The notes under the pieces were generated by a model. It was given only the letters and a program-made list of their open reading frames with translations. It did no database searches and was not told the origin of the DNA. The position numbers and the translations under genes are program-made. A stretch of 58,989 bases of DNA, filler included, from Dugesia japonica (Eukaryota): assembly GCA_001938525.1 (NCBI GenBank). It is 5 parts of 5 records of this genome, joined end to end, with 100 filler letters (N's around TTAATTAATTAA, not from the genome) between each part and the next. Parts side by side here need not be neighbours in the genome. Positions count along the whole stretch, not along the records: positions 1 to 10,694 come from MQRL01184903.1; positions 10,795 to 22,065 come from MQRL01366302.1; positions 22,166 to 32,361 come from MQRL01599835.1; positions 32,462 to 47,688 come from MQRL01593413.1; 1 more part is not named here. The stretch is one strand, 5' to 3'. This document shows, one piece after another, positions 5,345 to 41,420 of this stretch. Numbering within the stretch: position 1 is the first letter of the stretch; each line of letters begins with the position of its first letter.

Positions 5345-5638
5345 TGTTGGGAATATAGGATTTGATATTCGTTTTAATAATGATTACTTTATCTACATGT
5401 CTAGGGGCATACCTAAAATCCACAAGTATTTTTGTCACCTGTGTGACATGCCCCTTTTTTCCCATGGGTTCAGCGCGACTTTGTGGTATCGCGTCTTAGC
5501 TACTGTTTTCCTGAACCTAAACTAACATCACTCACATTTGCTCAGTATTAATGCACATTAATTATAAATTAAATTCGGCCATACATAACCACTTAAAATA
5601 AAATATGCATCAACATGACAATGAAAAACATTTATTAA

Positions 5639-5945
5639 TTATTCATCTACTTCTAAATTTACTGTGGTGTTATCCGCATTTGATTCTCCTGGTGCCTCTT
5701 GATACAGCAGCCATAACGAGCGTAAGTTATTGAACATTGTTGCCTCACGGTCGGCATAAATTTTTATTACATCCGCCATTAACCGATTAGCCTTTTGTAA
5801 GGCTAACTCCTTTTCTTTCAGTTTTCGATATCGGGCGTCATGTTCCGGGCGTCTTCGATCCTCAGATTCCGACGCTCCTCCTTCTATTTTTTCTGCATTA
5901 CTATTACCTCTTTCATGCTGACTTTATTTTCAGTTGCTTTGTCCA
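5639..5945 (-). pseudogene. Family X coiled-coil gene ('MADVIKIYADRE' family), copy A
   Basis: LKEKELALQKANRLMADVIKIYADREATMFNNLRSLW...VNLEVDE*; homologous to 21246, 34609, 40817. Confidence 0.75.
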
Positions 5946-6406
5946 CTAAATTATAATAATAATTAAGAAAATATTTAACACTGAATTTGGTTTAGTTAGG
6001 GGAGGAACAAAAACTGGGTAGTTTAACTTAAACTCGGCTGAAATCTGAGAAAACAAACAAAAAAGAAAAACTCTGACGTGTTAAAACCGCCAACTACACG
6101 ATTTATTCATTTCCGTGAATACCATCGTCTATACCACACTTAAACACATCATTCCTTGAAGTGCTAGTTATTTATGCTCTTATCAGTATTGACCATGCCA
6201 TCAAAATTGACACGTCCCGTTATTGCATAACATATACATTAAGAGAAAAAAAACTTGATAGCCCCACTCCACCGCCTCTGCAGTACTATTACTTTACTCG
6301 TGACCTACATATCACCTCTCTAACTCTTCTGATCAATGATAAAATTAAAACGAATTCCACATATCATTAAAGACACGAAACACTTTTATTCCACAGAATT
6401 TTAGTT

Positions 6407-6858
6407 CTACTCCGGATCTCTCAAATCCATCAGCTCTCGTACTATTGCCTGCTCCTCGGCCTCGTCGTTTACATCTTTATAATTGGCAAGTGAGAAAACA
6501 CGGGTGATCTTTGGCGATGAATTCGATAGCTCCTCCTGGAGTCGTTTCATCTGATTCAACAGGGATTTCCGAACCCTGTCTAATTGACACTCTAACGTTC
6601 TTATCATGGTACGCTGGACGGCTGTTTGCAAGCGAATCGTCTCGTTGTCCGCTTTGAGACTCTGGATTTCTAGCTGCTGCCTTACTAAATCATCTATTCT
6701 CATGGTTTGTACTTCGTCCCACTCGATATAGTATCGGCCTAACTCATCAATGTAGGGCCAGTTGTAACGAGGTCTCTGTAAATTTCGCCTGCTTTTAGTC
6801 ATCTAAGAATTGAGAAATTATGAAATAGTACAATACTGTTGGAACTTCTGGATGCCAT
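6407..6858 (-). CDS. Orphan coiled-coil protein of family X (131-aa open exon, possible short first exon with 29-nt intron)
   Basis: Open ORF with heptad pattern, GC-richer than flanks, preceded by ttcttag acceptor and followed by AATAAA. Confidence 0.55.
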
Positions 6859-7333
6859 TTTCTTAATTGAAATATAGATAAACATGATATTGAATATTTA
6901 TACATTAAGACATTGGGAGTAACAATTAAAACAAAGTCACTGATTAATCAAATTTATATTTAGCTGATAATTACAAATTAGGTTAATGTTGTTTCCCTTG
7001 TTACTGTTACTGTACTGTATCCTGATTCCGTTTTTATTTACAATTTACCGGGTGTCACTCTCACAGACGCACCACCTGCCTGTCTTCATTGGGCCATTCA
7101 CACACTAAATTTGACTCCGCCATTAGCGTCTCCACAACACAGCTTTACAATCTTTGAAAATCCTCAGACACTCTATATACAAATTGGAATTATTCTGATT
7201 ACGTATTGAATAAATATCTATATTTGTCAATCCATCTACTTCTACTATACCATTACTGTTTTTGATTTTTTGGAATACAAGTTTTTTTACATAGTCATAA
7301 AGTTACTATTTAATACATATAATCTACAGTATT

Positions 7334-7731
7334 TTACATCTCGGCATCCGATGTCATACGTAACTCTCTTCTCCATACCACATCCTCTCGCTTGTCTCGA
7401 TAGTGCTTAGGATTGTGGATACGCTCGGTAATCTGTTAATTTGGGATAAAACGAGCTCTGCATTATAGGCTTGCAACTCCTCCACTTAATGTCTCAGATC
7501 CTCTACGATTTTGTTAGTTCCACTCAAGGTTTGTAGGTAAAAATTCCGATTCTCAGTAATCTGTCGTCTTTGATTCTCTACTATTTTATTCAATCGGTGT
7601 ATCTGCATCACATAAAAATTTTGATTCTCCACAAGGGTTGCGTTTAATTGTCGCGTCTGTTATAACTGTTCGTTAAAAATATCGGAATTCCTCATTACGC
7701 GCCGGCAGTGTTCGTCCCATAAGTTCTCCAT
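7334..7731 (-). pseudogene. Orphan coiled-coil pseudogene with internal repeat
   Basis: MENLWDEHCRRVMRN...ENQNFYVMQIHRLNKIVENQRRQ / ENRNFYLQTLSGTNKIVEDLRH, in-frame stops. Confidence 0.5.
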
Positions 7732-7769
7732 TGTAAAATAAGGATTTAAAGGCTGATTAAGCAGTTGGG

Positions 7770-7950
7770 TATAAGTTCTTCGGCCTTCGGCCTAATAGTC
7801 TGATTCCAATGTTATATAACCTGAACCAGGAAAGATAACCAACCAATGTAAGCATCTTTCCTCGTTCCCGTCATCACCACTAATTTTGATGGGTTTTTCT
7901 GTATTCGTTAATATCGATTTACGTCAACTATTCCGTTCGACAAATTTTAA
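7770..7950 (-). pseudogene. Family X 'RPKN' gene, copy A
   Basis: MLTLVGYLSWFRLYNIGIRLLGRRPKN aligns with LLLLVGIFSGPCYRNGDEIIGPRPKN at 40299. Confidence 0.55.
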
Positions 7951-8954
7951 AAAAACAAAAACTTATTAGATAAATCAATGAAACCATAACTAAAGGACTA
8001 AAATTGTAATTAGATCTTTATTTTGATCAACACGTCAGCGCAAATATCTTCCTATGCATATTTGCTTAGAAAACAAAAATAAATCCTCGTTCTACTAATC
8101 TTTCGGTGAGAATAGCATAAATAATACCTCCGTTGATCACTTTAAATATCGAACAACCTTATTAAAATGAATAAATAATTATTTCACGAAAATCTAATTA
8201 ATTCCTAAAAATTTCAATAAGTCGGCACCATTTACTTGGTACAATAATTTTATTTAGACTTAAATATCATTATGTTATTATGCAATGAAATAAATAAATT
8301 GACGAGAATTATGTAATATAGAGTTTTATTAAAATTAAATCTTGATAAAAATAAAAAATAAATTTAAGATACAAGTATTTTAGTTACTAAACCAAACTGG
8401 AATTGATACTTTCCCATAAATCAAAACAGGCATTTTTCTCCCGAGACCGACCGAGCTCCATATATTCGCCATTGTTTAACCGGCTGATACTTGAATTTAT
8501 CCGATTCATCTCTAATTTCTCCTATTGCGATACTCATTAATTTTAACCCAAAATCATCCATTCTTTCTCTCGTATATTTAGGTATGATTCTCCGTACCAC
8601 CCTTTTCATTTCCTTCCTCATTAAATTTATTTAAAATGTTGGGTAGTTGCATAATTTATTCTCTCGATTCATTAATCGATGAATACTATAATTTTCTAGT
8701 GGCCTGCTCGATTTATAACTGCGGAACTTTAATGCATTGGCATATTCTTCAATAATTGGAACAAAAACCCAATAGCTCGATCCGTCCCGGAGAATTTAAG
8801 TTGAGAATGGCACTCGTTCATAAAAAAACATTTTTTAAATAAGCTGTAACTAAATGACAAAGATTTACTTTTAAAAGCTCCGGAATTACTGCTTCCTAAT
8901 GAAAGTTCTCTTATTGCTGCAAAATTAGAAAACGTGTCGAATATTTGAAACAAA

Positions 8955-9090
8955 TTCAAATTTTAACTCTGCCCAATATTTTCACAAAACTTAAATTTCA
9001 ACTTTTGCACTCGGTGCAATATTTCAACAACGATTAAATGTTCACTCTGCGCAATATTTTTACAAAAATTAAATTTTCACTCTGCCGTAT
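8955..9090. repeat. About 35-bp degenerate tandem repeat x4
   Basis: Recurring aaattt(t)cactctg(c/g)caatattt. Confidence 0.75.
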
Positions 9091-10208
9091 TTCTTCGCGC
9101 ACTCCCCTTTTATTTCAAGTTGGATAGGGAGATGGCTTGGCTCTCGATTAGCCTGCGAATAAGATTGGAAGTTTCACTATTGGCTTTTTGATTGGCTGCC
9201 ATCATCCTGATTTTGACGTGTGCATCCCGATGTTTCTTCATGTTTGTAAATATCGGTCATCACCTCATGTGACCTATGTGATGCATTAATTTGTTTCTAA
9301 GCAAAGTCCTTGTCTGAACGTCTGATGAATAATCCAGTTCGCTGTTTATTTATGACTATTATCATCAGATTCAGACAAGGCAAAAAGATGACTGGACCAA
9401 ATTAATTATTTTTCTAATAATATTAAACGCTATTTAGCGTTATTTATAATAAATAAAAACGGGTCGTAGAGGCCCTTCTAATATACTATTATATTATTGT
9501 AGATTATCTTTATTATTTGATTTTATATTTCCTTTCAGCTCGTATAATTTTCATTCCCACACGATGAAATTTGGGTCCTCTACGCCCGATTTTCGATTTT
9601 CGATATTTTAACAACTAATTATAATAATTATACTAATAATAATTACATCAGAATAATAATAATAATTTCGCATATAATAGGCCATTTTCTGGTCCAGCGG
9701 AAAAGGGTGTTCTTGAGACCTAAGTGTTACAGCCTTCTTAGCGAAAAGAGTGGATGAAAGCAATAACTAACACTAACGACAAAATAATATGGGTAGAAAA
9801 GAATAAAGGTCTAAAATACGGACCTAATGATGAGGAAACAACCTATTTAAAGGTAATCATTTTATTTGTTAATTGAAATTAATTAATTTTTTTATTTAGA
9901 TATTCAACCTTAAAGTTTCAGACGATTAAAGTAGATGAATAGAAGAGAAGATTTACTTTGAATAAATTGTTGTTTAAAAATCTTTTGTTCTTTTGTTATT
10001 TAAATTGTTATGTTTGTACTATTATTATACTGTAACATCAGTAATATTAAGTCTGTCCAGTTTAAATTCTAGTAATATTTTCATTTAAATTGTTATGTGC
10101 ATATTATTATTTCAATGATAATGATCAGTCAGGAAACAATTAGATTTCAATGTAGATATCACTTTGTAAGAATATTTATGGCATTTTCTATTTAATTTGT
10201 TATATATA

Positions 10209-10400
10209 TGTTGGGTTTCTATAATTTTGATATTTGAAAATATATTTTTTTCTTTTAGCTTCTCACTTCTGTATTTAATAATCCAACTTGCAATCGAGGT
10301 GAGTACCTAAAAATCACAAACAATTATGTCACCTCTTTGTCATGGCTCTCATTCCACAGGTCCAATGCGATTTTGCGGTATCACGTGATTTTCTCATTTA
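10209..10400 (-). mobile_element. Additional family X terminal segment
   Basis: TGTTGGG after TATATATA, then tacctaaaaatcacaa..tgtcacctc..catg..gcgattttgcggtatcacgt matching 5345-5500. Confidence 0.75.
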
Positions 10401-10738
10401 ATATAAAAATACAATCATTTACAACTTGCTCAGTACTTTTCTTAAAAAAATTAATATAAGTAGAGGGATAGTGGCGGTCTGGCGCACACATATTCAGTAC
10501 CCCCCCCNNNNNNNNNNNNNNNAAACGAAACATAATCCTAATGTATTTAGTCGACGATTTGAAATTGCACACCTATTAAGTAATTTTATGTAACTGCGCC
10601 AGTATTTTTTATGTGTATTAAGTTGGGAAAATTATTTGCAAACAAATTATGTCATAAGATAAATTTACGTAATAGGATTAAGTGGCTACATATTNNNNNN
10701 NNNNNNNNNNNNNNNNNNNNNNNNNNNNNNNNNNNNNN

Positions 10739-12069: not shown

Positions 12070-15000
12070 CCTAATTAATGGAATTTACGATATTTTGAAA
12101 AGAAAAAAACAAGAAAATTATTTAAACATTTGAAAAATATAAAATTTTATAAAATCGAATATTTTAAAGATAGTAAAGATGAATTAACAAGAAATATTGA
12201 ACGATTACATTTTATATTAATAACCCGGATTAGAAAAGAAATTACTAAAATTGTTGATTTATATTTTGATTATTCAAAAAAGTTGATATTACGATTAAGT
12301 GTAAACTGTAATTATAATAAAGAAGATCAAGAAAGAGTATTTAATTCATATTCAAGTAATGAAAGAATAACAACGAAAGGCGGTGTAGAAATTGCTGTAA
12401 GTGAGTTATTAAATCAACTTCAAAGATATATCGAAGATGAAGATCAAAATGAATGTGTTTGGAATTTAGATTGTATTGTTGATTTCAAAATTGAATTATC
12501 AAAATATCAATCATTAGTTGGTGGCACCTATATAAAATTACCTTTTATTAAACGAGGTGTAATTAATATTTAAAATAAAGACAATTATTGTTTTCTATAT
12601 TCGTTTTTAGCACATAAACATGTAATACAAGATCAACCAACTAGAGTTTCAAATTATATTCCTTATTTAGGTGAATTAAAAATAGGGTAAATTAAATTTC
12701 CAGTAAATAATGATGATGTTAAAAAATTTGAAAGATTAAATGATTTTAAAATAAATGTATTAGAAGTAAACCCCAAAGCCAAAATATTTCCTATTTATAT
12801 TTCTTATTATAAAACTAATCCAAAACCATCTGAAAATAAAAGTAATTTATTAGTTTATAAAGAACATTGTATTTTATTTAGATATGTTAGTGTTTTAGTT
12901 AATACTAATAAAAATTATTTGTGTATATCTTGTATGAATTTTTATCATAGAAAAAATTAATGAATTAATCATCAGAAAGAATGTTTAAATCATGATTTAT
13001 CTAAAGTTTATTTTGAAAAAGAAAATTATTATTCATTTAAAAATCCTCATTTTGCAAATGAATTACCATTTGTAATTTACGCTGTTTTCGAAACTTATAC
13101 AAACACAATTACTAAAAAACAAAACCATTATCTCTTGGAATTTATTATCTCAACATTTAATGGAAAATGAATATAAAGTATTTTATGGAGAAACTATTCA
13201 TGAAGATTTCTTTAAATTCTTGTAAGAAATGAATGATAAATTAAAAGACATTAAAGAAAATAAATTAATCTTTATTTCAATAAAACAATTCAGACAAAAA
13301 ACTTTAAAGAATATCCTAAATGTAGATATTGTAATAAAAATATGGGGACAACAGAAAACCTAGTTATCGATTATGATAACTTTAATGGATAATTCACGGG
13401 TTAAGCTCATTCAAATTCTAATTTACAAGATAAATCGATTAAAGATTTATTTATTACTTTATATTTTCATAATGCATCTGGTTATGATAATCATTTGTTT
13501 TTCAAAGAATTATTCACAAAATACCCATCAGAAATAAAAAGAATAATTCAACAGACTGGTGAGATTTATATTTCCTTTGAATTAAGAAAGATCCGATTTC
13601 TAGATTCTTCAAGAATGTGTACTCAAACTTCAGTTGAGAAAATGGGGGAAACATTAAATTGTTAGGGAAGGTAGACATTAAAGTATGAAAAGACACAAAT
13701 ACAATAAGCAAGCATTAAAACATAACAGCATATATACACATAACAAACAATTCAGTGAATTCGAGATCAATACAATCATTCGATACCCAACAAACCAGCA
13801 AACTTCAGTGATCCAAATTTTGTAAAGAAACTTAATTGATCATCAACCTTGAACTTAATTTTATAATTGTGATCAATTGTTTATTTTAAATTTATTGACA
13901 ATTTTGGATCGATTAATTTTATAATTGTGATCAATCGTTTTTCATGGATTTACAATTTTGGATTTTAATCAGGTTCGAAATATTTTGTTATTGTATGGAA
14001 AATTTTTATAAAATTTTTTTTTATCATGAAAATTAATGTAAATATTTGGTAATTTAAATCAGGCTTGAAATATTTTGTTATTATATGGAAAATTTTTATA
14101 AAAATTTTTTTATAAATCATGAAAAATAATGTAAATATGCATGATAACTATGATAACCACTAGTATAAATAGTAGATTTTATTTCATATTTTTCGCCCGT
14201 TCTTGAAATTCTCAAAGAAGTCTAATACCTAAGGTAACAGACTCAGANNNNNNNNNNNNNNNNNNNNNNNNNNNNNNNNNNNNNNNNAAAAAAGTAAAAC
14301 TTGTTTTATTTAATATAAGACGACTATATTTATAAAAATATAATTCTATATATTAAACATATTAAGGTATAAGCAAACGAATATAATAATATTTATAAGT
14401 AAAAATTTGGATTTAGTTTCTCTAAGATATAAATAATAGAACTCACGTAAAAATCGTTGATTTGCCTTTGCGAAATCCCAAAGACATCTCAACAAAATGA
14501 ATCTAATAATTATAACTATTTGAAACCATTTAATCTTCATCCAAAGAAAATATCATTTCCATATGATTATGTTAAAGGAAATAATATTAATGAAGTAATT
14601 GAATTATTTAAAGGGGTTAACAAACCATCAAAAGAAGATTTCAATATATTAAAATATTAAAACAAAATATATTAAAACAAAAGAAAATAAATGATCAAGA
14701 ATATAATGAATTTTTAAATGATTTTAGTAACTTTAATAATTTATGGGATTATATGTTACATTATATGAAACTAGATGTAACTATTTTAGTTGATTACTTT
14801 GAAAATTTTAGAGAAACTGGTTTAAATAATTATCAAAAAGATCCTAGTTATTGTTACTAAGCTCCTGGATTAACTTGGAATGCGGGAATGAAATTTACCC
14901 AAGTAAAATTAAAATATGCTCAAGAAGAAACTTATGATATTTCCCTAAAAATTGAAAGAGGGGTTAGAGGCGGTTATTCGGGAGTTTGTGGAGAGAGACA

Positions 15001-16385
15001 AGTCTTTTGAAATAATCAAAAATCAATTAATAGATTTGAAAGAACTAGACAACTAAACAAAGCACAAGTTGGAGATATATTATTTTCATTTATTAAAAAT
15101 AAATCTATACCGAAAAATTGGAAAGATACATTTATTAAATATCTAGATGAGAAAAGTCTTTATGCTAGCTGTATGACAAAGCCTTTACCAACAGGAGAAA
15201 TAGTAGAATCAGATAAATTAATATATATACCAACAACTGATAAAATTAATTATATTTATGAAGTTGATTTAGAATATCTAAAAGAAATTCATGAAAAAAC
15301 TAAATACTTTCCATTAGCACCAGATCGAATAAACATTATAAAATAAATGTTAACACCTTATCAATTATCATTTAATAAGAAATTATCCAAGTAAAATACT
15401 AAATTGACACTAAATATATTTGATAAAGAAAATTATATAGTTTTAGAAAGTACTTTAGATTTATACATTTCTCTAGAAATGAAAATTAAAAAATCCATTC
15501 TAAATATATAACCCAACAAAACCTTGGTTAAAAGATTACATTCAATTTAATATTGATAAAAGAAACGAGGCTACAAGTAATCAAGATGTTTTTGGTGATG
15601 TCTTCTTTAAATTATTAAATAAGGCTTTCATGGGAAAACTTTAGAAAACATTAGAAAAAGATGTAATGTTGAAATAGTTGGAACAGATAAAGACTATTAA
15701 AAGTTTGCTTCAAAGATAAAATTTAGATCTAGTAAAATATTTACTTGTAAAGATACATGAGAAGCAAAAACAGCAGCAATTCATTTAAGACAAAGTAAAT
15801 TAAAATATAGTAAATTACCATACATTGCATTTACTATTTTAGAATACGCCAAAGAAGTAATTTATGATTTCACTTATAATCAAATGGATAAAGCAATTCC
15901 CAACAAATATAAAATTCATTAAAGTGATACAGATAGTGTCTTTGTAGAAAAAATTGGACAAGAGAATTTAAACAAAGTAACAAATTTATTAGGAAATAAT
16001 TTATTTTATATGAAAGATGAAAAACCAAATTCTGAAATATCTAAATGTGCTTTTATAAAACCTAAAGGTTATGCATATGAGTTTGATAACCAACTCGATA
16101 AAAGACATAAAAGTGTTTCTAAATTTAGGGATGAAAGAATTTGATAAAGCTTTAAATTTAAAAGAAACAATTTATAGAACTAATTATAGTTTAAAATCGA
16201 AAAAACTTGAAATAGAATTAACTGAACAAAGGAAAATAGCTTTAACCGGTTATGATGATAAGAGATTATTCGAAGACAATGGAATAAGGACTTGGCCTCA
16301 TAGAAATAAATTTAAATGTGAAAATTGTAGTGAGTGGGATTTAAGACTTGATAAATTACAACAATTAAATTGTAGTTTAATATAA
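12070..16385 (+). pseudogene. Protein-primed DNA polymerase B with endonuclease VII-like zinc motif (Polinton/adintovirus type), near full length, copy 2
   Basis: GGTYIKLP..VINI*NKDNYCFLYSFLA; CRYC..DYDNFNG*FTG*AHSNSNLQ; FHNASGYDNHLF; YISF..RFLDS; FPYDY; LDVTILVDYFENFR; RGVRGG; YLDEKSLYASCM; SDTDS; YDDKR. Confidence 0.95.
13660..14494. mobile_element. LTR-type insertion (solo LTR or gap-collapsed element) in PolB
   Basis: TGTT...AACA termini, perfect 4-bp TSD AAAT (13656-13659, 14495-14498); removal restores frame ETLN|ESNNY...FPYDY. Confidence 0.88.
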
Positions 16386-16501
16386 AATAAAGTGGCTCAC
16401 GCGAGAGTCGATTTCTAATTCAAATTTATAAAGTGGTGACTGCAGTCACAGGTTTTTTAATTAAAATCTAAAATCAAAAGTGTCGTCTGCAGACGCCAGC
16501 T

Positions 16502-16747
16502 TTATCTCTTTAATTTATTAATAACTTTTTGTTGATTTTTGCACTTTGTTTGCGTTAGCTCTATTTGTTCTTCAAGTTTCTTTAATAAATCCCCTTTTAA
16601 ATAACTTTCAAATTTAACTTCTTGAGAAATTAAATCTTTAACTTGTTTTATCATATTCTTACTTGTTGATATTTCTTTATCAGTTAGAAGACTATCGCTT
16701 AAAGCTTTTTGATGAAATAAAAATATCTTATTTTTAACCGTTTCCAA
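16502..16747 (-). CDS. Small Polinton-associated hypothetical protein
   Basis: Open 81-aa ORF abutting 16748 ORF in same frame (possibly one gene with a premature stop). Confidence 0.45.
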   Translation of the reverse strand: METVKNKIFLFHQKALSDSLLTDKEISTSKNMIKQVKDLISQEVKFESYLKGDLLKKLEEQIELTQTKCKNQQKVINKLKR

Positions 16748-17167: not shown

Positions 17168-17191
17168 TTTATTTATTGTTTATTTAAAGAT

Positions 17192-18830: not shown

Positions 18831-20342
18831 AAGTTTTTAAAAAATCTAGGATGCCGTAGGACTTTATCCTATAATTTATTCCTGACATTTTCTAATATGA
18901 ACTAATAATTAAATGGTTTTATCATTAAAATTTATTGGATTATTATTTTCATCTATAATAGTGTTGGGATGAAACACAACACTAAAGAAAAGGCAAAGCC
19001 GCCAGATTATAAAATGGTAAAAGAGGGAGAAAAATCATAAATGCAGATGAAAAATACTCAAAGATGGTTAAAATGAGAATAAGAACAAGAACGGGTTGAA
19101 AATTAATTAGTGGACGATCAAGAGTATGAAAAGTCGGCGGGAATGAACCCAGATAATCAAAGCCCGCATCCGCCCATTTAATTCAATTAAAAGAAATTAT
19201 AAATTAATATTCTAAGAAGGAAAATGTTTAATAAAACATTTAATAACAAGAAAAATATTAATTAAGTTTTAAAATAACCGAAAATTAAACCCAAAATTCG
19301 TTTATTTCAAATAACGTTGCTGCAAAAAATCACAGGACCTCGAGATAAGAAAATTCTAGAAGAATAAAGGGTAGGGCATCGGAATTTTATAATTAAAAAN
19401 NNNNNNNNNNNNNNNNNNNNNNNNNAAAGAGTCCAAAAACTAGACCAATGGGATACCTAAAAATAAAATTAGAACAAAGGAATGATTGTCATGTGCCATT
19501 CCAAAAATAGGCACCAATGACATGTCTAAAAACATGAAAAAAATGCTAAAATTGGCACTAGAACCAATAAGGTAGCAGAAATTAGAAGTAAAAATAACTG
19601 GTCAATGCCAAATTAGTGGGGGTGACTCGTAAAATGGTATTTAAACCCCCCAAAATTTAGACGAAGTTATCTGAAAAAAACACAATTATTAGTTTTATAC
19701 TACTCATAGTGAACTATTACTACCCGTGAATTAATTATCAGAGTTATCTCAGAAGATTATTAGTCATAACGACAAGTGAACTTTTAATTCGATCAAATCA
19801 CAATTTTACTTGCTAATTGTTAACAGTTAAGTAGTCCAGTCAACTTAACCATAACACTCGAAGGAAATTCATTAACGGCAACAATCAGAGAACGAAAATC
19901 TATTCACTCTTCACGCGTTGCAGAAAAATCCTGATTTATTAGTAAGCTATTCGATTTGTTATGTTATTAATAGTTAGGTGATGTTTTATATGATTTAATG
20001 CAATAATTATGTGGTTTAATATATTATTCACAACAAACATTTAATTTTTTAATTAATTATCTGGTGAATATAGTGCAATCTATATTATAATTTCCAGCAC
20101 TATTACTGATGATATTGGCTCTATTGTTTAAATAAGGAATGATATGCAGTGGCCCTTATTTTCATACTCTACTCCCTGATTACGTGCCTATAATTCCCAA
20201 GGCACAGTTAGTAAAATTACCTATAGAACCCACCAGTTTTTTTATAACCAGGGTTGTCGTCACTGGCAACCATTTTTTGTTATGGTTTTGGAGAACCAAA
20301 CCATGAATTTAATTTATACCTAAATATTTTGTCCTTTAGTCG

Positions 20343-20525
20343 ATGCCGGCGGTACTACGAAATACTCTTCGTTTAATAAGGAAACAACGTCAAACTACTC
20401 GCCTGAAGCAGCTGACAACATACTATTTAACAAATGGTAAAGTTGAACATCCCGACGAGACAGATCTGCAGTGTTTTGTTGAGATGTTCCCANTAGAGTA
20501 TAAAGTGNATATGGATGAGGAATAA
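20343..20525 (+). CDS. Orphan small protein exon, family X copy B
   Basis: 60-aa ORF after ctttag acceptor, GC-richer than flanks. Confidence 0.35.
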   Translation: MPAVLRNTLRLIRKQRQTTRLKQLTTYYLTNGKVEHPDETDLQCFVEMFPXEYKVXMDEE

Positions 20526-20583
20526 CTATTAGTTCCATCTTAGTGTAACTGGTGCATATAAAATAAAACTTAATTTTTGTTGT

Positions 20584-21072
20584 TTGATACATTTTTTATC
20601 TTTAATCGAATCATTACCAAATACTATTTTAGAGCATTATCAAATGGAATACAAGTGTGAAGTAAGCCTTGATGTAAATTCAGGCAGAACTGTGTTTAAG
20701 AGATACCAAAACCCATATGATCGTAACGCAAGGGTTTTGATAGAGCGATCAAATCTGCCGGCCGAACAAGTAATAAAAGAGAGGCGATGGGATGCCAGTT
20801 AGAGGAGTGCTTATTACAGCTGGTGTGGTTCTAGAAGGGATAGAGTCGCGTTTCCCACGGCTCCAATTTCTTTCGAGAGATCTGCTGAAGTATCACAGGT
20901 AGCGCGCGTGTGGCATGATGGGCCTTCATTAATCGGCATCACCACGAACCGCCTACCTTCAACTACCCAACTAACTTCTTTCGTCCAGAATTATTTGTGG
21001 AGTGCTCGTAATGGGGCGTCTAGTAATAACGACGAAAATGCCGAAGAGGAAATTGAGGAAGTTTCTCTATAA
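20584..21072 (+). pseudogene. Family X 'FKRYxNPY' gene, copy B (one internal TAG)
   Basis: EYKCEV..RTVFKRYQNPYDRN..NLPAEQ..*RSAYYSWCG..RVWHDGPSLIGITTNRLP..FVQNYLWSARN; homologous to 38226-38660. Confidence 0.8.
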
Positions 21073-21245
21073 TGTTGTTAAGAAGAATCAATGTTTGATT
21101 AGGCATTTGCGTTATCCGACTCGTTGTTACTTTTGTTAGTTATGAAACCAGTCTGTCTTTATTTATTAAACTATAAATCGTCTGAGATCCTGTTATTCTT
21201 TATCGTATTTGTATTTTAATGCATTCATCCTTGAATAAATCTCAG

Positions 21246-21531
21246 ACCACGAATAAAAAACTACGTGAAACCAGTGAGGACATGTAGCTCACGTGGGATT
21301 TATATCGGCTCGCTAAGCGGCGGTGGGAGGCTGAGACTGCAGTAGCTGAAGCTAAAGTTAAGCGCTATAAGCCGAAATGTTTAACCTTTAAATCGGAAGT
21401 AGAAGAGACCCAGAATCAAGAGAGGGTATGGAAATTATAAGTCGAATTCTTCACTGAAATCATTAAGTCTTATCAGGAGCGTGAAAATAAACTAGTAGAG
21501 AATACTCTTGGCCCCACATTTGATAGATAAA
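21246..21531 (+). pseudogene. Family X coiled-coil gene, copy B
   Basis: AKRRWEAE...FFTEIIKSYQERE, same W-to-motif spacing as copies C and D; two stops. Confidence 0.65.
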
Positions 21532-21638
21532 GGTACCCAGACTAACCGTTCCTGAGTTATCGTGTTTAAATTTTTGATTAACTTTAATAAATTATTTATT
21601 ATTTGTATCTTTTTTAATCTATTTCTCCGATTTTAGTC

Positions 21639-22058
21639 ATGGAGTTTGACTACTTAAACGATAATTTTTCTTTAGTGCAGCGAATTGTATTCCCAACTAG
21701 TTTGCGGAGATGTCATCGGATCATGCGCCGTCTGTTGCTAGAACGTCATTTAAAGTGTAAAACTGACCGGGCTCTGTTAAGACATCTCTCTCAGCGAGAC
21801 CAATTGATCAAGAAGTTAGACTTAGTGATTAAGAAACAAAATGATTTAGCCGAAAAAACTAAGGCTCTCGAAGCACAGAATACCCAGATATTGCAACGGA
21901 AAGTAGATTTATTAAAACAATATATAGCCGACCTGTCAAGTCAGATAGGCAACCCAACTTGGGTACAATGGGATGACAACGACGATATCGACGCCTTCAA
22001 TTTTTTGTCAACCAACCCGGACCAGTGGTTAGACCCTGGCGTGTTGGAAGAAATGTAA
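21639..22058 (+). CDS. Orphan coiled-coil protein with acidic Trp-containing tail
   Basis: Intact 139-aa ATG-to-stop ORF with heptad repeats. Confidence 0.6.
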   Translation: MEFDYLNDNFSLVQRIVFPTSLRRCHRIMRRLLLERHLKCKTDRALLRHLSQRDQLIKKLDLVIKKQNDLAEKTKALEAQNTQILQRKVDLLKQYIADLSSQIGNPTWVQWDDNDDIDAFNFLSTNPDQWLDPGVLEEM

Positions 22059-22109
22059 ATGTCGTNNNNNNNNNNNNNNNNNNNNNNNNNNNNNNNNNNN
22101 NNNNNNNNN

Positions 22110-30213: not shown

Positions 30214-30992
30214 TGTTCGTAATTATAGGAATTCGGACCATTGCCCATGTGTGACAATCCATGGTTCTACAAATTGTACGATTATGCCACTCAGCATTTC
30301 TATCTCTTGATCTAGGTCAAAATTTTTCTCGTTAGCATGTTCTATTCGTTTGATTAAATAAGCAAAAATATTACATATCTTTGCTTCATCTAGGCCAGTT
30401 TCATACACTTACCGTATGACCGCACTTATATTTTCACCGTCATATTGTACTGTCGGCAGTTGATCGATGCAACTCTTAATCAATTTTTAAATTGATATTC
30501 ACAATCCACTTTATCTAGTGGTAACTCTGGCATGATTTTTTTTTACTAAATTATTAGTTAACTTTTCAGTACTCGACATTCGATGTATAGGTACCTCTGG
30601 TGGTTGATTCCACGTTGGAACTGCTGCTGTAATTTGTCTTGCTCTAAGTGCACTTCGTGTTTCATCTGATAACAGATTTCTAAGTGGCGGTATTTACCCT
30701 GAATTAGGTGGTCTACCTCTTCGTCTTGTATTTACGTGAGAGTTAGCATGTCTAATTTGTGTTAGTACCTCTTGTACTGTACTTGTTTGATTAATAATTG
30801 GTGGTCTTATTTCTTCATCTGTAGGCACATTTTCTACATCAGAAATGATTACATCGTCTACATCTAAATCTACTTGATGCAATTGATTAATCGGCTCTAT
30901 CATAACCGGTATTACTGCTTCGGGAGGTGGGGGTGTATTGAGCTTATCCATCTCCATTCGATTATGTTCAGTTTCCTCTTCAGACTCTTCTG

Positions 30993-31230
30993 TTACCTCA
31001 ATTCAGGTACTACTTGTAGTACAACATTTATTTTTCTGTCTGCAAGATATCCAACATCGACCAGATATTCATCATCGTCAACTAAACTTCCATATATAAT
31101 TATCAGGTAAATATTTTGCTCATTAATTTCATGTCGAATTTCTCTCCTTAACCTTTTAACTTTAGTGAAACAATGATAATATTTTGTTATATTTGGATAG
31201 CCTTGTATAGCAATATCCAGTGTCAACATT
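30993..31230 (-). pseudogene. Ubiquitin-like domain 2
   Basis: TKVKRLRREI..IYLIIIYGSLVDDDEYLVDVGYLADRKINVVL resembles the ubiquitin C-terminal half. Confidence 0.5.
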
Positions 31231-31570
31231 CCTTGTCTGGATGGATTATGTCTGATAGCTTCGCCGTTTTTCCGCACGAGCATTTTTATTTCCGTTTGAT
31301 AAGGAGTGTTTAGACTCATTATTGGTAATATATTATCAATCAATTGTGCTAATGTATTGACAGGTATAGCTAGTATGATACAACAGCTTTTTAACTGTTG
31401 TATTATCTATAGTTAACTTTTGTAATTCATCTTTTATTTGATGTGGTAATGCTTCCATTTTTTCCATTTCTCTTGGTTCATATTCTATTACCAAACAACA
31501 TTGTTTTGATCAATACACATTGTAGAATTTAATGAATACCTAAGTCTTATCTCATTCGGCCAATCTGGGA

Positions 31571-31750
31571 TTAGTCCGTTTCCAGTAATGTTTTATTTGG
31601 ATCCATTAATTGTCCAAAATATCTGAGTTGAATTGGCTGTACTTTACGACACTGAAGTTTACAAATCAAGTTTTGTACTGTATCTAATGGTTTCATTTCT
31701 ATCTCAAAGCGATTACCGTGTGGTGGTTTAATCGCAATTAAGATTCTCTC
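31571..31750 (-). pseudogene. Ubiquitin-like domain 1
   Basis: ILIAIKPPHGNRFEIEMKPLDTVQNLICKLQ..QLRYFGQLMDPNKTL vs ubiquitin [46 protein letters not shown]. Confidence 0.72.
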
Positions 31751-32294
31751 AGCTCTAACTCTTGGTTTGAGCTGGCATCCGATTTTCTGTAAAATCGCTA
31801 ATGCTGGATCATCAAACATGTTATCTTCATTTACTCGAGTTGTAACAAGCTCTAATGCTTCCGGTATATCGCTATCCGGTATNNNNNNNNNNNNNNNNNN
31901 NNNNNNNNNNNNNNNNNGCATTTCATTTACTTTTTGTCTGTATTTGTCAATTTTTAAACATTTCCCCATGTCTGTTTTTTCTTCAAATGACGTATCTGAT
32001 AGTAAGAAATATACACTGTTTTCATCATCACTAGTCGTTGTATACGACTCATTGTCTGTATCGCTTTCAATTGCCTCATTTTTCTTTGCATAGAAAATGG
32101 TTTCATTGTTATCTGTATTTGTCGGTATGCTTCCTTGAGCATAGTAAATATCGTCATTGTCAGATTGTTCCTGCAATTTGCTCAGTCGCGTTCTCTCCTT
32201 CTGGAGTTCATATTCTAATTGTTCTAACAGGCTTTTGCAGTTGTCTTCATCTACTAAATGAGTAGTAGGTATTCCTTGTGTAATTTCCCTTGAA

Positions 32295-32361
32295 GCACTA
32301 CAGGATCTAGCCATGTGTCCGTACTTCTTGCAATTGTGACATTTTATTTGTCCCTCTGTAT
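32295..32361 (-). CDS. Gag nucleocapsid zinc knuckle
   Basis: CHNCKKYGHMARSC, in frame with ORF 31571-32314. Confidence 0.9.
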
Positions 32362-34288: not shown

Positions 34289-34608
34289 TTTTGGGTTGCT
34301 AGGCTTTTGATGTTGTTTTAATTTAATTTATATTGATCTTTCTTTTTAATCTCTCGATCATCATTATCTCTTTTCTTTAATATCATTTCTGTCTCGGGGA
34401 TGATACCTAGCAACCACAGAAATTTGCGTTGCTCTCTCTAGCAACACGATCCTCCTTTTCCCGGAACCAGCGGGACTATCCTGTATCTCGTCTTGTGTGT
34501 TTAATTTCTCTTTTATCCGGCTCTCAACTTTGCAGTGTTGTTTGTTGTTATTAATAAAAAACTTCTCAGTTAAAACATTTGTAGAAAAGTTTTTTTAGAT
34601 ACTAGTAT

Positions 34609-34965
34609 TCACTCATCTATGTTGATGGTTTCTTTTTCTTTTTGAATCTCCTTGACGGGTTTCGTCACCTGTGTGAGTGTGCAAACGGTTGCGATCATCA
34701 CGCTCTCTCGGTCGGCATATGATTTGATGATGTCGGCCATCGCTCGATATGATTGCGATAGAGCAAGATCCATTTCCTGCAACTTAATACTCTTCGCTCG
34801 TAGGGTAGAGTTCTTTCTTTGTAACTCCGTGACTTCACCTTGTAACTTCCTTTGTAATGACGCCCATTTCTTACGAAGGTCCACTATAGAAATGTCTGTT
34901 AGTGTCCTGGTTTCTGACACTGAAATTATGGAAANATAAAATTCTATAACTTTAATTATCTTCAC
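34609..34965 (-). CDS. Family X coiled-coil gene, copy C
   Basis: LRKKWASLQ...MADIIKSYADRESVM...INIDE*. Confidence 0.75.
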   Translation of the reverse strand: MKIIKVIEFYXSIISVSETRTLTDISIVDLRKKWASLQRKLQGEVTELQRKNSTLRAKSIKLQEMDLALSQSYRAMADIIKSYADRESVMIATVCTLTQVTKPVKEIQKEKETINIDE

Positions 34966-35049: not shown

Positions 35050-38000
35050 TGATTTCATCTTTAATTCTTTGTTATCAGGAGAGTGTTTTATATCATTATC
35101 ATTAAATAACCATAAGACAGAAAAAATTGTTAGATCTAAAAACTATATAGATNNNNNNNNNNNNNNNNNNNNNNNNNNNNNNNNNNNNNNNNNNNNNNNN
35201 NNNNNNACCATCATTTTGTAACATTAGTGCCAATATTTTAGTTTTTAATTTTCCAGATTTCGGTTCTTTATGTATAGTCTTGCATTGGACACAGGTTTTA
35301 CAATCAGTTCTTGAGAGAGCATCTGCATTCAGATGTTCTTCACCTTTTATGTATTCCATTTTAATATCCGAATTGCTAAGATGGTTGATTAATATCTGAA
35401 ATTGTGGTGTTTTTGGTCCTTTAGTCTTCCGCATAAATGTTATTGCTTTAAAATCAGTTCTTAATCGAAATCTCTGTCCATACAAATAATGTTTAAAATG
35501 TTCTGTGAAATAAACAATCGACAAAAGTTCTATTCTGGAAATGCAATAGCCCAGCTCGTGTTTACTCATGGCTTTAGATTCGTAAGCAATAACTTTTTCT
35601 TCACCATAGTTATCAATTTGACTTAAAACTCACCTATTCTATCAAAGCTGACATCAGTGTCCAATATAAATTCTATAGAAAAATTCAGAAACGCTAAAAC
35701 TGGAGCTTTTATTAGCTCACCTTTCAAATTTTTAAAAGAAATTTCGCACTCATCTGTCCAGTATATTTTTTCTGGTTACTACCACATAGATTTTCTAAAC
35801 ATTTTGAATACTTTGTGTAATCCTTTATAAATTTTTTATAAAAATTTGCGAGGTCTATAAAAGTTCTAAACTTTTTAACACATTTTGGGGTTTCAAAATT
35901 AAAAATGGCTTCAATTTTTCACTATCAGTATGGATCTCTCTTGAATTAATAATGTGACCCAGAAATTTTATCTCGTTTTTCATGAAATGACATTTAGATG
36001 GACTTATTTTTAAATCAGCTTCTTTTATACTATTAATAATATCCACCTTTTAATAATTGTGCACCTTTTGTCGAAAATGCAGTTTTACATTTTGAGTCAT
36101 CTGTTAATTCTACTTGATAGTAAGCATTACCCAAATCTATACTAGTAAAATATTTGGCTCCATATAAAATGGAATAAGAAAAATTGGTCTTTCTGTAACT
36201 TCGTTTAACAATCTATAATCTAAGCAAAGTCGTATGTCATCATGGTCTCGTTTTTTTACGCAAACCAAAGGAGCATTCCAAGGGGAGTCACATTTACATA
36301 TAATTCTATTTATATCCATTTCTTTAATATTTTGCTCAATTTAATCTATTAAATGATAAGGTTGACGCCTAAGAATATTTGCAATTGGTTTACTATTTGT
36401 TATTATTTCATGTTTTACAATAATACTTTTTCCAATATCCCATTTATGTTTAATTATAATGCTTTCATATTTTTCTAAAATCGTGAAAATCATTTTATCT
36501 TTAATATTTTCAATTACTAATGTTTTCGGTTTAAATTTATTTACATTAACAGATTCTTCATTAATGGTGAGTTTTATATTAAATTTATTCAATAGATTTA
36601 TTCCACAAATAACANNNNNNNNNNNNNNNNNNNNNNNNNNNNNNNNNNNNNNNNNNNNNNNNNNNNNNNNNNNNNNNTTAAATATACTTTTCCTACAATT
36701 TTTAAAGAACTATTATTCGCACATTTAACATTTATATCAGAATCAATTACTAAAACATTTGCAATTCTTTTTAATAATTCATATTTAATAAGACTAATTT
36801 TAGCTCAAGTATCAAGTAAACATGATGTAACAATATTATTAATTTTTAAATTTATCATAGGTCGACTATCTGCGGTATTATAGTTTTCATAAATTTCTTT
36901 ATCAAAATTATTAATAATTGATAAATTATTATTATCGTTATAATTTTCATTACTACTATAATTATTTTTATTATCCACAATTATATCAAGCATAATATCA
37001 TCACACAAATTTTTTTCAAGCAATCAATATCAATCATACCATTATTGCTCAAATCAAATCTTAAATTTTTTAATGAATCGCCCCGACAACTTCCTCTCTT
37101 GGAAGGGCTTTGGCTTTTGGCAATTGATCTGTCATCATCTGTCATCAAATCATCTGAATGTTCATCGTATGCTGCAACATTGTTTTGACGATAATCTCTT
37201 TTCATATCCCGAATCTCATAGCATTAATGTTTAAAATATCCAGGTCTGTTACACTGGAAACCTTTTACATTTGGACAATTAACTCTGACATGTCCTTCTT
37301 TTTTGCATGACCAACATCTTTTAGATCTTTGTGGAAAATTATTTTCCNTTCTCTTAAATCCTCTTCCGTNAAAACGATTAATGGGTGTACTTGAATTAAC
37401 ATATCTTCTGGAATTCGAATATCGGTTTCTGTTGTTTTCCACTAAGTTATTCCTTTTAAATGTGACTGGGTAATTTGACTGAAAATCATTAAATTTTGCA
37501 GTTGTTGCATAATTCTTCTTTCTGATTTTAATTGCTGCAACATTGACTTCTAGATTAAGCTCCTTCTTGATGTTGTCCATTTTTGAAAAAATGTCTTTCA
37601 TTTCTTCATTTGTACTGGATACTCGAATTTTTATTTCTTTTTTACATCCATATCTTCAACAGCGTTTTGTAAAAGAAAACTGATGAGATTTTCCTTTGTT
37701 AAGTTATGTCTAATTATATTCTCTGCAAGACTATCAATTTTGTTGAAAAACNNNNNNNNNNNNNNNNNNNCTTTTCGATAATTTAATGCAGATAATAAAT
37801 CTTTACCTGAGGAAAAAAATGCTTTCATAAATGTTCTTTGAACAGGACCTTGAGGCATTGTAAGCTCATAAAATCTTGCTATCTCGATAAAAAATACTTC
37901 CACATCGTCTCCAATATTGAAGGTTTTGGAGTAAGAACAAAGGAATTGAGCATATGTTCTTGGGTGGTCACCATGTTAGAAGTCTGTTTCATAACCATAA

Positions 38001-38173
38001 TATTTATTAATATGACAATCTAAAAATGATGGTTGACTTTACTTAATATAAATTTTAATAGTTAATTAGACTTAAACTACGAATCTAATTGATGAAAACG
38101 CAATGAGCAACTTAAGTAATTTATCTAATATTGGAAAATGACAAGAAAGATCAGAAACTCCTAACTTATAACA
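35050..38173 (-). mobile_element. Ty3/Gypsy element (gag, PR, RT, RNase H; integrase missing/gap) with 200-bp 5' LTR and PBS
   Basis: LTR 37974-38173 TGTTA...TAACA followed by TGGTGACCACCC; CWSCKKEGHVRVNC; LLDT; SPWNAP, CLDYRLLN; DTDVS, HLNADALSR. Confidence 0.92.
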
Positions 38174-38225
38174 AGAGAATTTATTAGAACAATCAAACAC
38201 AGTTAGCGGAAAACTTCAGTCATAG

Positions 38226-38660
38226 TTAAGTTTCCCCATCAACTACAGGGTCAGAACTCTCCGAGCTACTGTCATTTTCCGGGTTTCGGATATTCCAGAG
38301 GTGATTATGCATGAATGCACTTAAACCGGAGAAAGGTGGCAACTGTTCTGTATTAACACCAACTACAGAAGAACCTTCCTGCCATTCCCTGATTATCCGC
38401 GGCTCTCCATTCGTATCTATATGTATGGTTGTGACTGCGTGGTATACTGCGCGAGCACGATCGGGACCCTTCCAATCATAAAAGGCCTGACGCTCGGTAG
38501 CATTCAACTGCCTTTCCTCATTTGCTTCTTCAGCCGGCAGGTTGGCCGGTCTGAAAAAACGCCCACATCCCTATTGTAAGGGTTTTTATAACGTTTAAAG
38601 ATGGTTCTGTCTGTTGATTGATCTTAGTGAATCTCCCACTTATATTCCACTGAAGATAAA
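38226..38660 (-). pseudogene. Family X 'FKRYxNPY' gene, copy C
   Basis: EYKWEI..RTIFKRYKNPYNRD..NLPAEE..ERQAFYDWKG..REWQEGSSVVGVNTEQLP..FMHNHLWNIRN. Confidence 0.8.
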
Positions 38661-38699
38661 AAGAAAATAAATAAATAAATAAACGTGGAGAACGAGAAA

Positions 38700-41420
38700 A
38701 ATTAGGAGAAAGATTCGTGCTGCACCAGAAATGGGATCGTTATGAGTATTATTACCATTATTAATATGTAATTATTTTTATTATAATTATTATGAATTTA
38801 TTATAAAAATAGCGAAAAATGAAAATTGGGCTTTGATGATTTGGATTATAAAAATAAAACTTTCGAGAAATAGAACAAGAATGTTTAAAGAAATAATAAA
38901 AATAGTATACACCAAGATAATATTATATTAAAGTGGTCTCTACGACCCTATTTCTTTATTAAACTAACGCGTTAGCGTTTGATATTATTATTATTTTCAC
39001 TAATTAACTCTGGTCCAGTCATTAGTGCTTTATCTGCTGAACACGAAAATAGTAAAAAACCAGTGAATCACGTTCAGGCAAACAAAGACTTATCATAGCA
39101 ACCGGACTAGTCAGAGGTCACATGAGAAGACCAGCCGAAAATAAATCTTCCATCAAATAAAATACTAGTTGATATGCGCCAAATAACTATCAAAACGAGA
39201 AAGAGAGAAAAAGCACAAAATGAGTCGTGGCCGAGTGTCATCCAATCAGAGGTCCAGATTATCAAATACGTGATGATGATTAGTTGGTTAATGAACAGTC
39301 CTAATCTATAGTTGGAGGGGCTGAATAAAAATGAGATACTCAGAGAAAATAACAAAAACTTCATTTTAAAAATATTTTATGTTTTAAACCTGCTATAACG
39401 AAAGTACTTAAAAACCTATTTTTATAACAAGGACGAAATTTTTCACCAAAGGAAAAAACTACGTTTTTTAAAGTAAATTTATTTATTATTAGCAATTACT
39501 ATTTAATGAAACTATAACTTTATACAATCCGAGTGTGTTCGAAAGAAACCGATGATTGGGCTCCCATGAAAATTAATCACAAAACGAGATGTAGTTTAGT
39601 AAAATAAATATCGCATATGAAATTTAACCGAAAAGAATTCGTATAAAATTAAAAGACGGTTCGAGAGAAATGCAGCGGAACAATAAAGTTTGTTAGAGAC
39701 AAATTTAATGATAAAACGAGATGTAGTTCAATGAAATATCGCATATAAAATTTATTCAAGGGGAATTCATATCAAGTTGAAATATGGTTTGAGCACAAGT
39801 AATGCCAGAAATGAAAATCGTCCAAAATTGTAATATCAAAGTCAAATGTGGCACGAGAAATAATTGATATGCAAAAATGGAATATCGTTCTAAAAAATTG
39901 ATATAGAAATTACACATCTTTGAGAGCTCGGTTATCGTACTACATGTTGCCTCTTGTGTTAATGCTATTTTAAATTTGGTTAATAGATTTTGGAGTGTGT
40001 TTTCAACAATTGTATTTTGTGTAAAAGGAAAATATTACGTTTTAATTTGATAATTCTTAAATTTTTTTTATTATTGTCTTATTTAATTTTTAACTTAATA
40101 TTCATAAACTATGTCATAAGGTAAAATTAGATAAGTTTTATTTCAATTAATGTTCTAATAACAATTCAATGCGAATGATAATCATATTTTATATATGCAA
40201 ATGTTTTGTTTGTTATAAATGTTTTTTAACATCTCAGACGAACCAAATTAATAAGAAAAACCTTACTAGAGCTTCGCACTAGCAAGGACGAGCAAGGATT
40301 GCTGCTTTTAGTGGGCATCTTCTCCGGTCCGTGCTATAGAAACGGGGATGAAATAATAGGCCCTAGGCCGAAGAATCGTGAGATGACTATAGTCATTATA
40401 ATCATCCTGTTCATTAAGGAAATGTTCATTCAAAAATGTTTTTACAGATATGAAAATTTTATTTTTTTATTATTATCCGTGAGTTGTTTGAACTGAGAGA
40501 TATCATCCCGATAGAATTAGCTGGACATTAATAAATCATATCTACTGGTGTTGGAATTTTGTTGTTTTATTTGTTGTAGAAACGTGATATGTATGTCGCG
40601 AGCTCGTTTATAACTGTAGACTGCAGAGACAGTAGACGTTAAATGAATCATGAGTAGAGCATGTAATTGATTTAGTCTCTTTTGTGTATTTCATTGAATA
40701 AGCTGGCACAGAGTTTGAGTCGGTTCAAAATATATGATAATTAATAATATTATTTAAAAATGAAAACCACCTTTTTACTTCTCAGACTAAGGTAGTTTTA
40801 TCTTAAACTAACTTTAATGCACAAATCCATCGATGAACCACCCAAAACTAGAGAATTAGTAGCCGCACAGAAAAGATGGGCCGAAGAGCGAAAGGACATT
40901 CTGGGCGAAATCTTACGATGGAAAGGACAAGCAAAAATATCAGCATCCAAGTTTGCCCAGCTAAAGAAAAGGAGTTATCGCTGCAAATGGCAAACAGGCT
41001 CATGGCGGATGTAATAAATATTTACGCCATCCTTGAATCTACCATGTTTACTACACCCCACACGCTATGGGTGGACTACAGGCCCACACCAGTAGAGGCT
41101 GAGGAGAGTTTGCAGTTGGTTTAGATGCGTAAATAAAATACATAGTGCTTGAGGTTGTTACGATTTTTTGTGGAGTTTAATAAAGGTTTTAATCATTTGA
41201 TCGGAGTTGACAAAATTACTGAGCGTAGAAAAAATGTTTGTCCATTAACATCAATTGAGAGTAAGACGCGATACCGCAAAATCGCTCTGGATCTAGGAAA
41301 GAGAGGAGCATGGTACAGAGGTATGATAAATACTTGCGGATTTTAGCTATGTCCCTAGATTATGAATTTATTTCTTAAATGTAGAAGATAGTAGATGAGA
41401 GAGAAAGTTAAACTAAATAA
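38700..41420 (+). mobile_element. Family X cassette copy D
   Basis: Co-linear with reverse complement of copy A: ctctacgaccc, tggtccagtc, ggtcacatgag, RPKN gene, MADVI gene, taagacgcgatac...ccctaga terminal block. Confidence 0.75.
40817..41124 (+). pseudogene. Family X coiled-coil gene, copy D (frameshifted)
   Basis: AQKRWAEE..KFAQLK / EKELSLQMANRLMADVINIYAILESTMF. Confidence 0.78.

Follow-up and report, generated by a model that had tools for sequence, protein, structure and literature searches.

Family X of Dugesia japonica: mobile insertions carrying small genes, most likely solo long terminal repeats of giant Gypsy elements

What kind of element carries the clusters of small orphan genes that recur in a stretch of the Dugesia japonica genome? 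The stretch (the window: 58,989 nucleotides, five scaffolds of the AT-rich assembly GCA_001938525.1 joined by spacers) had been described in a first-pass annotation as holding four long diverged copies of such a cluster (A to D) and a fifth terminus (E), on three scaffolds. These copies, here called Family X, had been put down either to giant gene-carrying solo long terminal repeats (LTRs) or to non-autonomous elements mobilised by an integrase. We established that copy A is a discrete insertion, that the copies have common ends and exchangeable middles, that two protein families recur across diverged copies and that no terminal inverted repeat is present. Family X is real, mobile, gene-carrying and under selection. 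The solo LTR fits better of the two options, and the copies are most likely solo LTRs of giant, Burro-like Gypsy elements with an antisense array of spliced small genes. Window positions are used throughout, and the features are collected in Table 1.

Copy A splits a Polinton-type frame that we take, from its motifs, to be a PolB (it stays below Pfam thresholds), and the terminus of C cuts a frame that we likewise take to be the reverse transcriptase (RT) of a long interspersed element (LINE). The interruption of a PolB and a LINE, reported earlier, stands in this sense. The flanks of A gave no PolB match in Pfam; compared with the other PolB of the window, the right flank gave a match reached in 14 of 2000 shuffles and the left flank none. 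A LINE RT-like frame begins again near 45060, not necessarily in the copy interrupted by C. DNA contigs of four runs join the flanks of A directly: 5335 to 9710 in three of the four runs, at a depth of 744-1053 and with 22 letters in place of 4.37 kb, and 5345 to 9713, again in three of four. Related joints occur in 4/4 runs, the sides of the joints being short (18-26 letters). RNA reads matching the right flank diverge at 9710-9714 in 3/3 RNA runs. We place the boundaries of A at 5345-9699 because of these flank-to-flank joints and the RNA divergence. Copy A is a discrete mobile insertion whose empty site is present in other copies of its host element. A single-locus host gene family was rejected, since A splits the gene of another element and the empty site exists.

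All four long copies are present, and A and D align at both ends: over ~360 bp at 70% (A 9698-9338 with D 38719-39067) and over ~420 bp at 64% (A 5818-5400 with D 40963-41359). No stretch between these two ends is alignable. With an empty site, two shared ends and differing middles, the proposed mobile insertion with a variable gene payload is supported. A subterminal motif of ~100 bp in A scores 110 with D, 79 with E and 50 with C (maxima of 100 shuffles per comparison 50, 37 and 32), E being the fifth terminus, at 10209. A 5' half of C beyond D was rejected (best scores 62-64, shuffle maxima 53-63, AT-rich), and no promoter end of C is recognisable. One end reads TGTTGGG in A and E and TTTTGGG in C; the other, on the same strand, reads CAGCA in D, CAGCG in A and CCCAACA in B. 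The TGTTGGG-type ends claimed for the family are thus found in A, B and E, with C and the opposite ends of A and D departing from them. Since TGTTGGG is commoner in the window than chance (11 occurrences, 3 expected), we place the end of B by the offset of its promoter and a change in composition, alignment giving no help: its 5' region scores 40 with both A and D, where the shuffle means are 40 and 43.

That the non-coding DNA of B aligns to no other copy, and that C is fragmented, would suit two or more unrelated families (A/D/E and B/C) with swapped gene modules, grouped by the common MADIIK gene described below. But C has both the FKRY gene, as B does, and the A/D/E subterminal motif, and the promoter offset of B is the same, so we find this explanation hardly probable at all. 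The ends also bear on the class of element. A and E lie at TATATA sites, in agreement with the two TATA termini noted before, and C does not. The account of fly Gypsy families in PMC3276498 gives TATA/ATAT as preferred targets, with 4-bp duplications. The two kinds of end, TGTTGGG and CAGCA/CAGCG, make a 5-bp imperfect inverted pair only, and no terminal inverted repeat of at least 14 nt joins the ends of A among the 25 longest of 50 inverted pairs. DNA transposons with such repeats (Pack-type, Ginger or a Polinton derivative) were rejected for their absence. Helitrons begin with 5' TC and end with 3' CTRR; this signature is absent from the Family X ends on either strand, and a Helitron was rejected because the end sequences do not fit. 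Rfam gave no match, and the three matches of the subterminal motif in metagenome contigs, all at 50-55% GC and with no further similarity, are due to chance.

The ends are present in large excess. The 24 listed runs that contain A bear a single organism label, and no RNA run is listed as containing it, which has no bearing on expression. Summed over contigs, depth reaches 55-78k for the TG end and 9-32k for the CA end; it is 8-19k at 7405-7818 and ~50-1100 in the private parts of A, and contigs of unique flanks have a depth of 4-9 in three runs and ~20 in the fourth. End depth exceeds that of unique flanks more than a thousandfold (three to four orders of magnitude), a rough contrast only, as summed contig depth is not copy number by the tool's own warning. 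Family X consists of very abundant insertions of 3-4 kb; A measures 4355 bp, D at least 2.7 kb and B at least 3.1 kb. At position 5498, 140 and 126 contigs leave the sequence of A in the two of four runs listed, with low agreement (~0.5), and many subfamilies therefore have only the last 150 bp in common.

A profile built only from 17 outside proteins was searched against 1176 six-frame tiles of the window and found the MADIIK protein in C (expectation value E 1.6e-19), A (2.3e-16), D (7e-11) and B (7.8e-4), the next unrelated tile having E 0.43. Its presence in all four long copies, as annotated, was thereby confirmed. A, C and D are linked by direct comparison, in which the B homologue is weak (E 0.09-0.13); the B open reading frame (ORF) at 21639-22058 was rejected as MADIIK, the homologue sitting at 21282-21530 instead. 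Relatives number 5 in a 50%-clustered library and 17 in the 90% set; the 17 have 63-115 aa, lie on contigs of 0.5-2.2 kb and are all unnamed. They have a conserved core, xADxxKxYADRE, and the model is a single helix (residues 16-105, predicted local distance difference test, pLDDT, 88), for which PDB offered generic coiled coils only (best E 0.063). Codon differences rank third > first > second position in 5/5 comparisons (in the three independent ones, 90, 62 and 122 at positions 1, 2 and 3 over 187 codons). This order is expected under selection on protein, though the protein-guided alignment favours the same pattern.

The FKRY protein is common to B and C as claimed (E 4e-19). In contrast to these two families, the RPKN family of A and D was not recovered: with E 0.16, it comes down to a common word of 11 nt. 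Single-sequence searches covering near lengths, with fused forms outside their scope, gave no homologue among 4 candidates for the C FKRY ORF and none among 12 for the 131-aa ORF of A. For FKRY the ESM Atlas had no usable match and PDB none, and a fold from a two-row alignment (pLDDT 49.8, no viral-structure match at E 0.001) is an unreliable model and uninformative. None of 13 Family X ORF pieces reached the Pfam cut-off, none of 65 pattern matches to MADIIK in viral contigs was confirmed, and homology with ORFs of the env-bearing element of scaffold 3 was rejected (best E 0.056). A known protein family was rejected for want of a match in Pfam, PDB or among named proteins. The third ORF of A (7640-7660) and C FKRY (38490-38510, minus strand) share RQLNAT and are each other's best non-family tile, not significantly (E 0.35-1.1); from sequence, they are possible distant paralogues.

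The genes follow a common layout. Downstream of the promoter, A and what is preserved of B have four ORFs each, C has two and D one clear ORF. The TATA-like box lies 587 (A), 610 (D) and 677 bp (B) from the CA end, preceded by three CCAAT boxes in A, three in B and one, at the same offset, in D. Two of the seven CCAAT triplets within 150 bp in the window are those of A and B; the CCAAT clusters reported for the copies are real there, with a single box in D. A donor-like site follows 150-300 bp past the TATA-like box, and the exon ends in A in all three copies with that end. Nine acceptors were examined. Three are AG/TG (the slash marking the splice), in frame with one upstream base (A MADIIK, C MADIIK, C FKRY), three others have the same phase, one directly precedes ATG, and two do not fit (B and D MADIIK, both decayed). 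An AG/TG-type junction is visible in the translation of two outside relatives (P0002 and P0008). AATAAA-like signals had been noted after each ORF; AATAAA within 60 nt of the stop was found at 7/11 ORF ends, chosen after inspection, and at 14% of random positions (p 2e-4).

Both alignable copies (A and D) also have an AATAAA on the strand opposite to the genes, flanked by two hairpins and ~240 bp in from the CA end. Related copies are weakly transcribed. First mates of RNA run X14 number 4 on plus and 37 on minus at 9508, and 10 on plus and 0 on minus at 6886 (one run of unknown protocol, the signal at 6886 coming from ~5 fragments, p 0.06); the end module and the gene region are therefore read from opposite strands. 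If the library followed the common stranded convention, transcripts of the gene region have the sense of the genes, and those of the end module run towards the CA end. An LTR with a long U3, a short R-U5 and an array of antisense genes would produce this pattern. The same data make LTRs with genes on the sense strand very doubtful. These would have a short U3 of ~600 bp and genes in a very long R/U5, the arrays being early, prematurely polyadenylated transcripts like fly 412 sORF1. The clearest promoter does face the genes, and PMC11952523 describes a short sORF1 transcript of 412/mdg1 made by early polyadenylation. But several poly(A) signals would stand in the way of a full genomic RNA, which would need to pass them all, and the CA-end module has its own AATAAA and RNA on the opposite strand.

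We favour solo LTRs because of the TG...CA-type ends, the lack of a terminal inverted repeat, the apparent layout of promoter and poly(A) signals, a size within the implied range of Burro LTRs and the presence of an element of Burro layout in the window. In the mechanism we propose, the integrase of a giant Gypsy parent would insert the element, and recombination between its LTRs would leave a solo LTR, of which the long part would be U3 and the CA-end module of ~430 bp R-U5. An internal promoter would drive the small genes antisense to the RNA of the element itself. Transcripts from this CCAAT/TATA promoter, which lies ~600 bp in from the CA end, would carry a short leader exon with A as its last base. 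The exon would be joined to any one of several acceptors, and every gene would end at a poly(A) signal of its own; at AG/TG acceptors the ATG would arise from the splice itself. Subfamilies would swap their U3 gene modules and keep the ends.

Several points weigh against this interpretation. None of six Family X termini in the window lies beside a primer site, polypurine tract or gag-pol, and no paired copies were seen; among the rows listed, the loose contig ends of the DNA and RNA data have no such neighbour either. Both solo LTRs and non-LTR elements would be expected to give this result at the termini. No target duplication was seen at A, the sole copy with both junctions and both ends: its left junction has TATA and its right none, and a few letters that the empty site would lead one to expect are missing from its right junction. 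CA-end flanks start with TATA in 0/3 cases. The CA end of A reads CG, and no copy has TG and CA both intact. The hairpins have weak z-scores (-1.9 and -0.1), copy A itself is nearly silent (3 of 564 RNA reads at least 99% alike), and the splicing check found no spliced joint listed in the three RNA runs. To these are added the unaligned end of B, the short sides of the empty-site joints, the rough depth measure and the narrow base of the strand reading.

Some of these points would be met by stand-alone non-autonomous cassettes that were never LTRs and whose DNA was mobilised in trans by some enzyme (integrase, transposase or recombinase) recognising the two conserved end modules. No gag-pol neighbour was seen, no target duplication shown, the ends are conserved with exchangeable middles, and there are several internal poly(A) signals. 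We still consider such cassettes unlikely: the ends of A were not found to be joined by any terminal inverted repeat reaching 14 nt, the ends are not TC...CTRR, and a DNA element would have no use for the opposite-strand poly(A) signal and RNA.

What the MADIIK protein does can be approached from its tail. The pattern [VTI][VI]x[LIF][DE] ends 15/17 of the relatives and none of 1217 other windows; that it was formulated after the alignment had been viewed is a point against it. SUMO-interaction motifs have a hydrophobic V/I-x-V/I/L core with acidic flanks, and the tail resembles such a motif and is predicted to bind SUMO. We tentatively predict a long helix, likely a coiled coil, with a terminal SUMO-interaction motif, acting as an accessory regulator of SUMO-dependent silencing; possibly the protein blunts host silencing. 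In flies, 10.1101/533091 describes SUMO as the link from piRNA to H3K9me3, with SetDB1/Wde recruited through contacts between SUMO and SUMO-interaction motifs, and a SUMO-like domain is noted in Burro in PMC6431247. A bolder and rather improbable extension of the solo-LTR reading is an accessory 'operon' in the LTR of a giant retrotransposon, in which an antisense promoter and a leader exon would give the start-codon A to exchangeable orphan genes and a SUMO-binding coiled-coil protein would counter piRNA-guided silencing. The array would survive, because it is inside the LTR, in thousands of solo copies that could supply proteins in trans.

Table 1. Family X copies and their parts in the window, with the Gypsy element nested in C.
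Feature	Position	Strand	Remarks
Copy A, whole element, 4355 bp	5345..9699	+	PolB-like frame split; empty-site joints; both ends common with D; genes on -; likely solo LTR with sense strand +
A: TGTTGGG end and conserved ~150-bp subterminal motif	5345..5498	+	likely U3 start; TATATA site
A: MADIIK gene	5639..5945	-	AG/TG acceptor before; 5' part broken by stop and frameshift
A: 131-aa orphan ORF	6407..6802	-	intact; splice acceptor immediately before ATG
A: orphan ORF, 125 codons	7352..7731	-	two in-frame stops; within high-depth module
A: orphan ORF	8421..8830	-	frameshifted
A: three CCAAT boxes (9195, 9183, 9168), TATA-like box (9114), candidate leader exon and donor (8868)	8863..9195	-	putative function
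A: conserved end module	9268..9699	+	likely R-U5; hairpin-AATAAA(9452-9457)-hairpin; terminal CAGCG
Copy E: TGTTGGG end and subterminal motif	10209..10445	+	TATATA site; truncated by a different repeat and by gaps
Copy B	18962..22065	-	genes on +; truncated at scaffold end; starts TGTTGGG on +, Polinton DNA adjoining; putative boundary, from promoter offset and composition, no alignment
B: three CCAAT boxes, TATTTAAA (19638), candidate donor (19942)	19445..19947	+	
B: micro-ORF	20340..20525	+	frameshifted; motif EHxDETDxxC-x3-MxP
B: FKRY gene, 142 codons	20644..21072	+	one in-frame stop
B: MADIIK homologue	21282..21530	+	diverged; in-frame stops; profile E 7.8e-4
B: 139-aa orphan ORF	21639..22058	+	intact; coiled-coil-like
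C: TTTTGGG end and subterminal motif	34289..34500	+	LINE RT-like frame cut
C: MADIIK gene	34609..34919	-	open frame from AG/TG acceptor; only unbroken copy in window
Nested short Gypsy within C, not Family X	35207..38173	-	~200-bp TGTTA...TAACA repeat candidate; TGGTGACC primer-site candidate; decayed gag-PR-RT-RNaseH, then gap
C: FKRY gene	38226..38649	-	after AG/TG acceptor; one stop and one frameshift
Copy D	38718..41420	-	genes on +; CAGCA end at 38718, arranged head to head with C; other end disappears into (TAA)n run and gap
D: CCAAT (39242), TATA-like box (39324), candidate donor (39473)	39242..39478	+	
D: MADIIK gene	40817..41124	+	frameshifted

The first-pass annotation had seen no RT. 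This is wrong for the span of C, where the nested Gypsy has an RT and RNase H (RT_RNaseH E 1.7e-17), and right for Family X itself. A second LTR of the nested Gypsy was not found, and its primer-site candidate is one that we take to be tRNA-Trp-like. It was rejected as the internal region of Family X, since the DNA differs on its two sides and the same two genes are adjacent in B. It is related to a second short Gypsy at 51800-53960 (minus strand), with 39% amino-acid identity over RNase H. Scaffold 3 (22166-32361, minus strand) holds another decayed Gypsy. A zinc knuckle comes first, followed by a fusion protein of Monjiviricetes type (three pieces, E 1e-11 to 2e-18) and then by protease, RT and integrase. 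An env between gag and pol is the layout described for planarian Burro in PMC6431247 and for other flatworm elements in PMC13524379. Further ORFs follow the integrase (22466-24564), one with a signal-like stretch and a hydrophobic one, and no LTR of this element lies within the scaffold.

Other repeats adjoin the copies. A decayed Polinton at 14500-18960 has a PolB on the plus strand (15011-16382) and an adenovirus-type protease on the minus strand (18366-18695); B starts beside it, and two of the four long copies are therefore in or adjoining Polintons. E is cut off by a short repeat found at 10446-10690 and 1370-1435 (78% over 67 bp), which resembles a DNA transposon end. Between D and the resumed LINE frame lies a remnant of a hAT dimerisation domain (43830-44134, plus strand, E 0.036). 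A tandem array of ~126-bp units occupies 49164-49684 within a Gypsy pol region, and a segment duplicated at 56600-58460 (69% over 379 bp) surrounds a Quiver/Ly-6-like host ORF (57426-57929, minus strand, E 2.6e-12).

How does Family X compare with known systems? Retroviruses carry accessory regulators in, or drive them from, the LTR: sag of MMTV, nef of HIV (U3) and the antisense HBZ of HTLV-1. These are single genes in LTRs of ~1 kb or less, whereas Family X has arrays of three to four exchangeable genes. Burro, with a total of >30 kb, an internal part of up to 25 kb and thousands of copies, is likened here by description: the sizes published in PMC6431247 imply LTRs of several kb, the element has accessory ORFs, and its layout occurs in the window. 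That account of Burro/GYPSM1 places the accessory ORFs and domains in the internal region, however, and describes no gene array in the LTR. Grande, RIRE2, Retand and Boty have conserved orphan ORFs of unknown function antisense to gag-pol (PMC7264820), but their place is between pol and the 3' LTR, so that a solo LTR no longer has them, whereas the Family X genes are inside the termini. The sORF1 and sORF2 of the Drosophila MDG1 group, likened here by description, are Gypsy accessory ORFs of 70-110 aa, one of them nuclear, with a poly(A) site between; they differ from the arrangement proposed for Family X in being sense-strand genes that are not spliced and that precede gag, beyond the LTR (PMC11952523).

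Similar in anatomy, by eye and over their first ~400 letters, are the probes of two planarian repeats given in PMC8532177, whose names there follow RepeatMasker/Repbase annotation: that of GLT2 has a pyrimidine-rich AG/TG acceptor before an open coiled-coil-like frame, and that of GLT a CCAAT and a TATA-like stretch before a small ORF. One primer each for GLT and GLT2 had no match in the window at 3 mismatches. From this likeness, related repeats have probably been catalogued, and Family X may already be in Repbase without such anatomy being described. No description of gene arrays inside planarian LTRs was found in the literature searched; Grohme 2018 with its supplements and Repbase, both outside that search, may bear on novelty.

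The usual view is that LTRs are regulatory ends without coding function and that a solo LTR is inert. If the copies are LTRs, an animal retroelement lineage uses its LTRs as modular carriers of three to four selected genes that outlast gag-pol. PIWI control of such elements is reported in PMC8532177 as essential in the planarian host, where GLT2 is de-repressed upon smedwi-2 knockdown, and MADIIK is a testable candidate for an animal retrotransposon protein directed against silencing. If they are not LTRs, Family X would be an unclassified, very abundant gene-carrying element, which would be still more surprising.

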